From: an uncultured Candidatus Saccharibacteria bacterium
GTDB lineage: Bacteria > Patescibacteriota > Minisyncoccia > Phycocordibacterales > WO2-35-19
NCBI GenBank assembly: GCA_964630525.1
Contig: CAZVUY010000003.1
Coordinates: 1 to 46,698, forward strand
Length of the DNA: 46,698 nt
Direction: 5' to 3'
The translations under genes and the position numbers were made by a program. The notes under the pieces are model-generated. The model searched no databases, was not told the origin of the DNA, and saw only the letters and a program-made list of their open reading frames with translations. Of this stretch, positions 1-8,122 are shown in pieces; the stretch's first letter is position 1; each line of letters starts with the position of its first letter.

Positions 1-1208
<1,208 letters not shown>

Positions 1209-1379
1209 TAGGAAATTCGATAATCACATCACGACACCAATTACGAATGAAAAACGAATGACACGAATAAAAAATTTATTATTCGTAAATTCGTGTGAAT
1301 TCGTGGATTAGTGTCATGTAATATTTTATCCTGCCTTATGGGACTTCTCTAAAAAAGTGGTATGTTTTTTGTATATTTT

Positions 1380-1488
1380 GTTTTGGTGCCTCAACGCCGG
1401 GGTCACACCCGTTCTCATTCCGAACACGGAAGTTAAGCTCGGTAGTGGCGATGATACTCGAAAGGGGAAAGTAGCTAGGCGCCAGAAC
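1380..1488 (+). rRNA. rrf: 5S rRNA (canonical)
   Basis: Contains CCGAACACGGAAGTTAAGC (loop C / helix III region) and GGTAGTGGCGATGATACTCG. Helix I can close by pairing GTTTTGGTGCC with GGCGCCAGAAC, including G-U pairs. Confidence 0.9.
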
Positions 1489-1584
1489 AAAATACGCAAA
1501 TTTATCGCTCATGGTCCCGCCTTACAGGCGCTGTACACCTGTTCTATTTTTTTATTTCACTCTGTTCATAAAAAATTATCACAG

Positions 1585-1762
1585 GTCTTGCGGTCGGGTC
1601 CCACCCCGACCTCACCCGTTCTCACCTGCCCGCCCGTAGCTTCAGCGAAGGCGGGTTCCGAACACGGAAGCATGCCCCGTAGTCAGCTTTGCTGTACTAC
1701 TCGGGGTTAAGCTCGGTAGTGGCGATGATACTCGCAAGGGGAAAGTAGCTAGCCGCCAGCAC
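1585..1762 (+). rRNA. Second 5S-like gene carrying two internal hairpin insertions. It may be a variant 5S or a pseudogene.
   Basis: The flanks match the first 5S: CCCGTTCTCA, TCCGAACACGGAAG, and TTAAGCTCGGTAGTGGCGATGATACTCGCAAGGGGAAAGTAGCTAGCCGCCAGCAC. Extra blocks lie at 1626-1656 and 1671-1706. Helix I could still close (CTTGCGG with CCGCCAG, one mismatch). Confidence 0.6.
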
Positions 1763-1826
1763 AAAATATTTAATGCAAAAATCTCGCCAGCTTTAAACTC
1801 TTTTGTTTTTAATCTATAATTAAGTT

Positions 1827-3233
1827 ATGGAAGAGCAAAGCGATTGGGCGTCGCGTCGGAAAAGTATCTATCTATGGTTGATCGTGCTGATCCTTTCGGC
1901 AGCCACTTTTTTCATTTTCTGGCAATTTTGGTACCAGACTCCTACTTGTTTTGATGGTTTTAAAAATGGCGACGAGACAGGTGTGGATTGTGGTGGTTCT
2001 TGTACGCTGGTTTGTAGTGCGAGTGCTCTCTCACCGGTTGTTAAGTGGGACCCTCGTTTTTTTGAAATAGACCAAGGGGTGTGGAATGTTTTGGTTTACG
2101 TAGAAAATCCAAATATCGATACTGTTGCCACCTATGCCCCTTACACTTTTACTTTTTATGATGCCAACAATCAGGTTCTGGCGACCCGCGAAGGGGCCAC
2201 TATTCTACCTAAAAACAAAACAGTCGGTATTTTCGAAGGAGGGATCAAACTCGGAGATAAAATTCCTAAGAGAGCCTCTTTTGATTTTGGTAAGAGAATG
2301 GTTTGGCAAAAAGATGAAAATCCAAACCCCGATATTACGATAAGTCATAGCCCGCTACTCAGAATGGATAGCACCCCTCGAGTGGAAGCTAAGCTGGTAA
2401 ATAATGAGATTTACGATATCAAAAATATCGAACTGGTAGCCGCTGTCTTTGATGGTGCCGACAACACGATCGCTACGTCGAGAACCTTTGTTGAAGAATT
2501 GAAAAAAGATGGGAGCGCCGAAGTCTTCTTTACTTGGCCGAAACCTTTTGATTTGGGTCTAAAAGTCTGCGAGACACCATCCAATGTAGTGTTGGCGATC
2601 GATCGGTCTGGTTCGATGCAATCTCTGGGTCAAAATCCTCCAGAACCCCTGACCAGTGTCAAACAGGCTGCGGCCTACTTCGTTTCTCAGCTTGGGGGAA
2701 GTGATTCGGTTGGGCTTATCTCGTTTGCTACCAATGCCGGCAATCCTGCGCCATTTGATTTAACCAAAAATTTTAGCGAAGCGATTTCTGCCATTAACCA
2801 GATCACTATTTTGAAAGATGGTACTCAATATACCAACATTGCTGACGCCATCGTCTCGGCCATGGAGAAGTTTGGAGACGATTCTTCTAATCAAAAAATA
2901 CTGGTACTCTTGACCGATGGGGTGGCGACTCGACCTAGCAATCCCAAAGGTTCCAGATCAGAAGCAGAAGAAATCGCTTATGCCGAGGCAGTGGCCAAAT
3001 CGGTGGCCGAAATGGCCAAAAAAAGTGGCGTTATTATCTATACAATAGGGTTAGGTAAAGGCATCAACCAGCCATTCTTACAGCAAATATCAAGTAGTGC
3101 CAGCCATTATTTCAATGCGCCAGCCACCTCTACTTTGATGGCTATATACGAAAATATCTCGTCTACCATTTGCAAAGAAATGCCGGCTAGGATAGAAATA
3201 ACCTATAAAATATTTGGCAGCAAAGTACAATGA
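1827..3233 (+). CDS. Membrane-anchored von Willebrand factor A (VWA) domain protein with an N-terminal Cys-rich module
   Basis: 468 aa with an N-terminal TM segment. Cys-rich motif CFDGFKNGDETGVDCGGSCTLVC. MIDAS-type motif VLAIDRSGSM and LLTDGV. The stop overlaps the next start (ATGA at 3230-3233). Confidence 0.8.
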   Translation: MEEQSDWASRRKSIYLWLIVLILSAATFFIFWQFWYQTPTCFDGFKNGDETGVDCGGSCTLVCSASALSPVVKWDPRFFEIDQGVWNVLVYVENPNIDTVATYAPYTFTFYDANNQVLATREGATILPKNKTVGIFEGGIKLGDKIPKRASFDFGKRMVWQKDENPNPDITISHSPLLRMDSTPRVEAKLVNNEIYDIKNIELVAAVFDGADNTIATSRTFVEELKKDGSAEVFFTWPKPFDLGLKVCETPSNVVLAIDRSGSMQSLGQNPPEPLTSVKQAAAYFVSQLGGSDSVGLISFATNAGNPAPFDLTKNFSEAISAINQITILKDGTQYTNIADAIVSAMEKFGDDSSNQKILVLLTDGVATRPSNPKGSRSEAEEIAYAEAVAKSVAEMAKKSGVIIYTIGLGKGINQPFLQQISSSASHYFNAPATSTLMAIYENISSTICKEMPARIEITYKIFGSKVQ

Positions 3234-7696: not shown

Positions 7697-8122
7697 ATGG
7701 TGGATAATAAATTCCTCTACAACCACAAAACTCTAAAAGAAAGACGGCGAGAGCTCAGAAAAAACCAAACTCCTGCGGAAAAATTGTTATGGAAACATAT
7801 CTGCAAAGATAAAATTTTTGGGCTAAGATTTTTGCGACAATATGGAGTAGGTCCATACATCCTAGATTTTTATTGCGCCAAGATTCGACTAGGGATCGAG
7901 CTTGATGGGGAAGTTCATAAAGAAAAGGAAAGAAAAATTTACAATAAAGACAGGGAAGAATATTTAAAAACTTTAGACATACATATCATCAGATTTTGGA
8001 ATAATGAAGTTCTTAAAGATATAAAAGGTGTACTAAATAAATTACATAATAAAATTAAATCACTAATTAAAAATAGTAGTCACCCTCCCTTTAAAGTAAA
8101 GGGAGGGTCGGGGAGGGATTAG
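7697..8122 (+). CDS. DUF559 (Vsr/restriction-endonuclease-like fold) endonuclease domain protein
   Basis: 141 aa with NQTPAEKLLWKHI...FLRQYGVGPYILDFYCAKIRLGIELDGEVH...IIRFWNNEV. The last 13 codons (HPPFKVKGGSGRD) are encoded by repeat copy D. Confidence 0.85.
   Translation: MVDNKFLYNHKTLKERRRELRKNQTPAEKLLWKHICKDKIFGLRFLRQYGVGPYILDFYCAKIRLGIELDGEVHKEKERKIYNKDREEYLKTLDIHIIRFWNNEVLKDIKGVLNKLHNKIKSLIKNSSHPPFKVKGGSGRD
8079..8122 (+). repeat. 44-bp palindromic repeat, copy D (forward), forming the 3' end of the DUF559 CDS
   Basis: Sequence GTCACCCTCCCTTTAAAGTAAAGGGAGGGTCGGGGAGGGATTAG. Its terminal TAG is the stop codon. Confidence 0.85.

Follow-up and report, generated by a model that had tools for sequence, protein, structure and literature searches.

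Expanded forms of 5S rRNA are better documented than is often assumed. The catalogue of Stepanov and Fox (2021) holds 89 of them at 17 insertion sites, the 108-nt insert of Halococcus included (PMC7812874). The sites that tolerate an insertion include positions 34-37 of loop C and the region between loop B and helix III; expanded 5S rRNAs keep a complete core with its two ends, and some species have no other 5S (PMC7812874). The same work describes a second kind of sequence, insert-bearing 5S remnants that lack terminal parts and follow a normal 5S gene, distally in the rRNA operon. Remnants of this kind are known from Peptococcaceae and Pseudoalteromonas, where they were judged to be pseudogenes and possible donors in recombination; they turn up sporadically and are suspected of having been transferred horizontally (PMC7812874). 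A preliminary description of the DNA studied here had regarded 5S rRNAs with insertions as very rare, with Halococcus as the classic case, but expanded 5S rRNAs and remnants have been catalogued well past that genus.

A survey of 645 CPR 5S genes reported no insertion of 100 bp or more (PMC11270868). Insertions are known from the 16S and 23S genes of these bacteria, sporadic among relatives and with horizontal spread probable (PMC11270868), and the inserts described below resemble them in both respects. They also resemble these insertions, and the 23S intervening sequences cut by RNase III, in being short, without ORFs and placed at the tips or bases of helices (PMC11270868).

The DNA analysed here is a stretch of 46,698 nt, called the window throughout, which begins in an rRNA operon. 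Behind a canonical 5S gene it holds a second, insert-laden copy of 5S sequence. We consider, with a probability of roughly 70%, that positions 1613-1762 are a non-working leftover of a 5S gene that has no 5' end, carries two hairpin inserts and is fused to an inverted structured module, here named M3, while the canonical copy does the work. With the described remnants the leftover shares the missing terminus, the inserts inside the core and the position behind a normal 5S (PMC7812874). It differs from them in two ways: some inserts of the described remnants are expansion segments of a working oversized 5S of the same genome, whereas no working 5S with the present inserts was seen in the window or in the loci of its relatives, and here one module also lies beside tRNA and tmRNA genes (PMC7812874). 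With expanded 5S rRNAs the copy agrees in the sites of its inserts and in their self-pairing, but its 5' terminus is missing. The CPR survey relied on a 5S model that is blind to such copies (PMC11270868).

The end of the rRNA operon and the working 5S gene

The order of genes is 23S rRNA, canonical 5S (copy 1), 5S leftover and first protein gene, with the following features outside the leftover.

1-1215, plus strand: 3' part of the 23S rRNA gene, at the start of the window (Rfam RF02541, 460.9 bits, model positions 2329-2925)
about 293-925: 633-nt insertion without ORFs that splits the 23S rRNA gene in domain V
436-877: group I intron match inside this insertion, below threshold (46 bits against a gathering score of 50, E 1.8e-10)
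1382-1487, plus strand: copy 1, a canonical short 5S of the Parcubacteria type, 106 nt (RF00001, 72.3 bits, full model 1-120)
1792-1820, plus strand: promoter-like site of the first protein gene, outside the leftover (10 of 12 consensus matches)
1827-3233: first protein gene, encoding a protein with a vWA domain

Copy 1 is the working 5S of the cell. It is enclosed by an extended processing stem, in which 1368-1391 pairs with 1477-1500 (inverted repeat I1), and it folds into a three-way junction (z -2.41). A short type of 5S has been reported for Parcubacteria (PMC9297842). The group I intron-like insert gives the 23S gene of the window a further likeness to the rRNA insertions of other CPR bacteria (PMC11270868), for whose rRNA genes an insertion such as that at 293-925 is typical.

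No tRNA genes were found in the window. Homologues of the vWA protein are labelled Candidatus Paceibacterota, Zambryskibacteria or Patescibacteria by their sources. A Pfam scan of the 42 long ORFs of the window revealed mostly a cell-envelope glycan cluster, plus SecDF, and among these ORFs no transposase, integrase or reverse transcriptase. The sole nuclease-like gene found is a DUF559 endonuclease-like ORF (7697-8122) between a sugar transferase gene and the secD gene.

A 5S copy without its 5' end

Three blocks of copy 1 recur 207-274 nt downstream and match far beyond chance; two hairpins separate them.

1613-1624, plus strand: 5S block 1, CACCCGTTCTCA, 5' strand of helix III and start of loop C (12 of 12 identical to 1406-1417; repeat D6)
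1625-1655, plus strand: insert 1, 31-nt hairpin in loop C, between CTCA and TTCCGAAC (-15.3 kcal/mol, z -2.2)
1656-1670, plus strand: 5S block 2, TTCCGAACACGGAAG, 3' part of loop C and 3' strand of helix III (15 of 15 against 1418 onward; repeat D3)
1671-1705, plus strand: insert 2, 35-nt hairpin between GGAAG and TTAAGC (-17.9 kcal/mol, z -3.9)
1706-1768, plus strand: 5S block 3, the 63-nt 3' half (95% against 1432 onward; repeat D1)

Block 3 comprises the 3' strand of helix II, the gamma domain, the 3' strand of helix I and the first bases of the flank. Once the inserts are taken out, the copy shares 96.3% identity with copy 1, counted from CACCC, and it retains the conserved sequence of loop C, loop E and the gamma domain. 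The preliminary description, which had taken 1585-1762 for a second 5S with its conserved blocks intact, was thus right about the repeated blocks, intact from about 5S position 27 onward, and wrong about what they make up. Homology to 5S begins only at 1613; helices I and II lack their 5' strands, and the 5' quarter of the molecule is gone. Positions 1585-1612, which have no 5S homology, are the antisense of a linker (CGCAAGAC) and of the P-a hairpin of M3, a separate inverted module in the 5' part that had gone unnoticed. A search of 1490-1830 with the 5S model RF00001, suggested at the time as a check, gave no match even at E<=10 (the gathering threshold is 38 bits). In the minimum-energy fold of 1585-1762 the 5S three-way junction is absent, and the stability of the stretch does not exceed that of shuffled sequences (z -1.26).

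It had also been proposed that helix I can still pair. A pairing of CUUGCGGU with GCCGCCAG can indeed be drawn with seven of eight pairs, but it uses the M3 linker and is therefore read as coincidental. Both hairpin inserts are real and both fold, although they had been placed one base off and the second had been counted as 36 nt. Their beginnings show some likeness, once offered as a sign of common origin, but it is modest, being reached by 76 of 5000 shuffles.

Simple scans found neither a promoter nor a terminator between copy 1 and the leftover, so that the leftover may well be co-transcribed with the rRNA operon. An ACAGG/CCTGT hairpin with a 9-nt loop, followed by TCTATTTTTTT (1525-1555), belongs to M3, and the terminator scan makes no call there. 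A spacer motif after copy 1, GGTCCCGCCTTACAGGCG, considered as a terminator or processing signal, was dropped when it proved to be the P-d hairpin of M3.

M3, a four-helix module

M3 came to light through a 23-nt probe, taken from an insertion common to three related loci (L003, L010 and L015) and run against GTDB genomes, which matched four Patescibacteria-type contigs and one contig binned as Segetibacter. A covariance model (R1) built on nine copies finds 13 copies at 11 loci, in Paceibacteria-type CPR bacteria. The window has a complete copy; read on the minus strand, it consists of GGGTGAG, hairpin P-a, CGCAAGAC, the long hairpin P-b/P-c, G(G/T)ACAG and hairpin P-d with the loop TGTAA.

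1515-1621, minus strand: M3, 107 nt, four helices (model R1, 113.9 bits, E ~6e-26; blastn match to the L024 copy)
1593-1598 with 1605-1610, minus strand: hairpin P-a (covariation)
1587-1594, minus strand: linker CGCAAGAC, invariant among copies
1536-1541 with 1581-1586, minus strand: long hairpin P-b/P-c (covariance model)
1518-1530, minus strand: hairpin P-d, CGCC-TGTAA-GGCG (covariance model)

In the window copy the sequence between P-b/P-c and P-d is GTACAG. No copy shows a change in the linkers CGCAAGAC and ACAG or in the loop TGTAA, and the stems covary. An independent MAFFT alignment shows compensatory double changes in 9 of the 26 predicted pairs; in the alignment fitted to the model, which leans towards that model, 98.4% of cells are paired and 15 of 26 pairs change on both sides (46 cells), a value that none of 500 shuffles reaches. 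When the partners are slid by 1-3 columns the paired share drops to 38-57%. Of 316 paired cells only 2 are G-U, a scarcity that an RNA structure would not usually show and that suggests a constraint on M3 that acts at the level of DNA or on both strands. On the other hand, in each of 12 copies the forward strand gives a more stable fold than its reverse complement.

Copies of M3 are about 72-74% identical regardless of the distance between the organisms, a value close to the nucleotide identity of the vWA gene (63-72%), so that M3 is old and constrained and not a young repeat. The 46-kb window contains one copy, L003 has two, and two contigs of a single MAG have three between them.

Rfam 15 yielded no match for M3 in 1490-1830 on either strand at E<=10, save two chance matches, and at gathering thresholds none in any M3-bearing locus. 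Group I and group II introns, self-cleaving ribozymes, bridge RNAs, TnpB guide RNAs and retron RNAs were considered as its identity and dropped, since there was no Rfam match, no adjacent enzyme gene, and a misfit in size or layout.

Leftovers in related lineages

Loci of relatives, fetched through homologues of the vWA gene, place the window copy in a family. At the distal end of the rRNA operon, several Paceibacteria lineages carry a 5S copy split by M3, by insert 2 and by a second recurrent module, M4. A homologous insert-laden leftover is present in five of the ten lineages with the same gene order, in a patchy pattern, and homologous leftovers also occur at four other loci (L010, L022, L023 and L025). 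Every lineage examined retains a clean 5S, and the 5S genes above the Rfam threshold in these loci are all clean and 106-107 nt long.

In the relative L002 (98% amino acid identity in the vWA protein) a single clean 5S stands directly before the vWA gene, and only one mismatch separates its 3' half and downstream flank from those of copy 2. In the strands of helix I, copy 1 and this L002 5S are distinguished by two compensatory pairs, which argues for replacement of a whole block and not for point mutation. A single clean 5S is also found in L004, L006 and L008 (62-64%) and in L028 and L029 (59%). The L002 locus has in addition a 173-nt insertion in its 23S-5S spacer (262-434), seen again in wastewater runs, which holds an 81-nt tRNA-like gene, read by ARAGORN as tRNA-Tyr with the unusual anticodon ATA (Rfam tRNA, 49 bits).

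The tandem arrangement recurs in L003 (75%), with the same insert 2 but without insert 1 and with an additional insertion of about 100 nt in the gamma domain. L015 (55%), L027 (57%) and L030 (55%) have the same gene order and homologous leftovers; the inserts in the leftovers of relatives measure 100-330 nt. Insert 1, present once in the window, is otherwise seen only in a near-identical groundwater strain and is missing from L003, L010, L015 and L027. Insert 2, by comparison, is kept in all four. In L027 it reads CATGCCCCGTACCGAGCTTTGCTCTGGTACTGGGG, with the fold preserved by three compensatory pair changes, and between organisms whose neighbouring protein is 55% identical it agrees in 33 of 35 positions, the level of conservation of a real 5S. 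Searched for together with its 5S flanks, insert 2 was not found in GTDB representative genomes; a comparable pattern, run on JGI metagenomes, yielded 13 loci: L010 and L015 are real, and the other 11 are chance matches or protein-coding repeats.

The 5S-derived parts fare differently. Lesions lie at otherwise invariant positions: L003 has deletions in loop C, in L010 CCGAAC has become TCGAAC, and the L027 copy is truncated. Damage of this kind in related genomes had been named beforehand as a finding that would refute a functional copy. The search for compensatory changes across relatives, also proposed then, divides the locus in two, for such changes are found in insert 2 (L027) and in the M3 stems, while the parts derived from 5S decay. 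Among the options of the preliminary description, a decaying pseudogene colonised by mini-hairpins comes closest, as the 5S parts decay and the hairpin modules are conserved and covary; an expanded 5S isoform is not supported, and a 5S-derived regulatory RNA is conceivable.

In some lineages the older copy encloses an intact gene, at positions of the older copy that differ between lineages. In L030 (1820-2300) an outer 5S that retains the 5' strand of helix I is split into four consecutive pieces, which together equal the single 5S of L028; the separators are M4, a segment with an intact 5S and its own processing stem, and M3. In L027 (1960-2440) an intact 5S is nested in loop C of the outer copy. 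The old 5S is thus split in L027 and L030 also by a segment that brings an intact 5S, and probably so in L015, where GTGTT is all that is left upstream of the older 5' end. A PF05635 gene, of the 23S rRNA intervening-sequence protein family, lies on the minus strand of L030 (5583-5951), a few kb from the nested 5S.

The leftovers of L010, L015, L022, L023 and L025 begin at (G)GTCACACC, with the first ~20 nt of 5S missing. The distance back to the clean 5S is 340-1100 nt, a space that in some cases contains unrelated ORFs; those of L015 and L022 matched no Pfam family. In L023 the intervening ORF is, judged from its sequence, probably glutamine amidotransferase-like. In L015, L023 and L025 the rRNA-operon terminator stands after the leftover. 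L023 has a leftover that, together with its 3' flank (CGAGTACTTGATTCTA), agrees with the 5S of the L022/L025 lineage and not with that of L023 itself (126-232 and 1349-1705), which suggests horizontal transfer of the leftover.

M3 and M4 at other sites

Within 5S leftovers M3 occurs in either orientation, always directly after a GGG run and before AA(A)G. It is not confined to them: a Zambryskiibacteriota MAG has copies behind its tmRNA and tRNA-Met genes and a weaker one behind tRNA-Arg. The M3 or M3-like modules of this MAG, whose adjoining genes are tmRNA, tRNA-Arg(CCT) and tRNA-Met, are as follows.

L024 1000-1470, minus strand
L024 4894-5072, plus strand
L026 780-1058, minus strand

A partial sense copy of the adjoining gene's 3' end bounds each of these units, which also contain an antisense copy of that end, and in both the tRNA and the tmRNA contexts the sense and antisense copies build a closing helix around M3. 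Behind the tmRNA gene stand two tandem units, plus a further displaced fragment of the tmRNA 3' end.

M4 consists of GTCACGCATAATTTT..AAAATTTGCGCGAC, then CCCGCCTCGCACCGTCGTG.TCCGG, then a hairpin CTCTGAAATGC..GCATTTCAG. Its insertion point in the 5S leftover follows CACCCG. L023 and L025 also have part of it in inverted form, and part of it is found in DNA and RNA contigs (X5 and X32).

L010 ~300-220, minus strand: M4
L015: M4
L025 4936-5020: M4
L023 1365-1450: M4
L030 1852-1950: M4

Two kinds of mobile DNA offer a comparison. Small non-autonomous hairpin elements are represented by REP sequences and by the MITE- and PATE-type derivatives of IS200/IS605. M3 and the inserts resemble them in their conserved short motifs, in their covarying stems of nearly pure Watson-Crick pairs and in their occurrence in either orientation; M3 has a recurrent insertion point, too. 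They differ in that no Y1 transposase was seen, and, while young copies of a MITE are near-identical, copies of M3 are not. Integrases, in turn, leave partial 3' duplications of tRNA and tmRNA genes. The partial gene-end copies that bound the M3 units of L024 and L026 look like such scars, but the units are only 160-270 nt long, lack an integrase and contain the antisense copy of the same gene end.

No integrase, transposase or reverse transcriptase was found adjoining the other copies of M3, and the ORFs beside the copies of L022, L024 and L026 share no protein. Since no such gene was found among the 42 scanned ORFs of the window or beside the other copies, no mechanism of mobility is in evidence. 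Viral contigs held neither insert 2 nor M3, and phage and plasmid collections gave no match.

Interpretation and alternative explanations

Under the preferred reading, a non-working leftover behind a working 5S, the lasting units would be the modules, whether selfish structured insertion elements or small structured RNAs, and the pieces derived from 5S would be their passive, decaying carriers. These carriers may sometimes be refreshed by recombination with the working 5S, from which the intact look of the 5S blocks in the window would follow. Presence and absence of the leftover could be swapped between strains by homologous recombination across the conserved 23S and 5S sequences; the difference from L002 may have arisen by such an exchange. 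Two things are not expected under this reading: 180-400 nt of junk in streamlined genomes of about 1 Mb, and the conservation of insert 2 at the level of a real 5S. A selected function fits both at least as well. The lack of evidence for a mobility mechanism, the possible co-transcription with the rRNA operon and the related modules in metatranscriptome contigs also count against the preferred reading.

An integration scar, although a rather doubtful explanation, accounts for several of the observations. Foreign DNA would have entered the 5S gene, site-specifically or through homology, restoring or bringing a 5S, while the displaced native 3' part stayed behind; M3 and the hairpins would then be end sequences of the element. 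The 3' half of copy 2 and its flank are native to the locus, the cargo between clean 5S and leftover varies (L015, L022 and L023), the L023 leftover resembles the 5S of another lineage, and the direct partial copies of gene 3' ends around the M3 units of L024 and L026 are the usual mark of an integrase. Nevertheless, an integrase is seen at no copy, the 5S pieces of L030 are consecutive and not duplicated, with M3 and M4 as plain insertions, and the two helix I strands of copy 1 match each other, where a simple single crossover predicts otherwise.

That the leftover with M3, or M3 alone (minus strand), is a transcribed and structured non-coding RNA under selection we regard as unlikely, yet deserving of weight. 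M3 could, for example, be stabilised in 5S, tRNA or tmRNA scaffolds, or act as an antisense or decoy for 5S or for 5S-binding proteins. Such a role agrees with stems that covary around single-stranded linkers and loops that never vary, with an identity that is independent of distance and similar to that of a neighbouring coding gene, with the better fold of the forward strand, with the closing helix at tRNA and tmRNA genes and with the rRNA-operon terminators behind three of the leftovers. It agrees less with the occurrence of M3 in either orientation relative to the 5S pieces, with the scarcity of G-U pairs and with the absence of the whole leftover from L002, a relative 98% identical in the vWA protein. 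The RNA data can be read both ways. Related M3-bearing leftover contigs appear at modest depth in two RNA libraries (X26, 151 nt; X30, 207 nt), as contigs that carry neither strand nor end information, but none of the indexed RNA runs holds words specific to the window copy. The wastewater metatranscriptomes, which carry a strain of the L002 type, look contaminated with DNA, as an 11.6-kb contig has a flat depth of ~72. The metatranscriptome runs X8, X10 and X12 (window 1200-2000) give contigs of up to 8-11 kb at a flat depth of 65-78 across genes on both strands of a CPR genome, so that they probably contain much DNA and their depth is no measure of expression.

A functional expanded 5S isoform, with the inserts as ribosomal expansion segments or as excised intervening sequences, is close to refuted. 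Both insert sites are among the tolerated ones, loop C 34-37 and loop B-helix III (PMC7812874), the inserts fold on themselves and a helix I can be drawn. Against this, the place of the missing helix I and II 5' strands is taken by M3, whose P-a covaries as a hairpin, the 5S model is blank, the overall fold is no better than that of shuffles, the copies of relatives are damaged at invariant positions, and a clean 5S, as in every lineage, stands 98 nt upstream.

An assembly chimera of two 5S-bearing strains is hardly credible: it is true that de Bruijn graphs break at 5S sequences and that many Logan contigs stop within one, but a 43-kb contig at even depth covers 1411 onward without mismatch, three runs of a single study carry the stretch whole and unchanged, 1200-2000 lies within an independent groundwater contig, and homologous arrangements occur in JGI, ENA and NCBI assemblies. 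The three identical runs and the groundwater contig together exclude an assembly error. A groundwater contig from run X4 is identical to the window over 1200-1725, both inserts included, and differs in 1726-1782.

Conclusions

Insert-bearing 5S remnants are a known kind of sequence, but they are new for CPR bacteria, and their range now reaches beyond Firmicutes and Pseudoalteromonas. They escape detection because the standard 5S model is blind to them. Where an "extra 5S" is called in tandem in a CPR genome, it should not be taken as evidence of ribosome heterogeneity.

As to M3, we tentatively propose that it is an undescribed four-helix element of about 105 nt of Patescibacteria, which lives in or beside copies of stable-RNA genes and is either a mobile element or a small RNA that borrows the ends of these genes. 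It combines invariant linkers with covarying stems and is found beside relics of three types of stable-RNA gene; it is thus either a selfish element with a taste for such genes or an uncatalogued structured RNA, and its covariance model allows public genomes to be searched directly. If the proposal is true, a mobile M3 would target 5S, tRNA and tmRNA genes, an RNA would use their ends for processing and stability, and the insert-laden 5S leftovers would be carriers of M3 and not mere debris.
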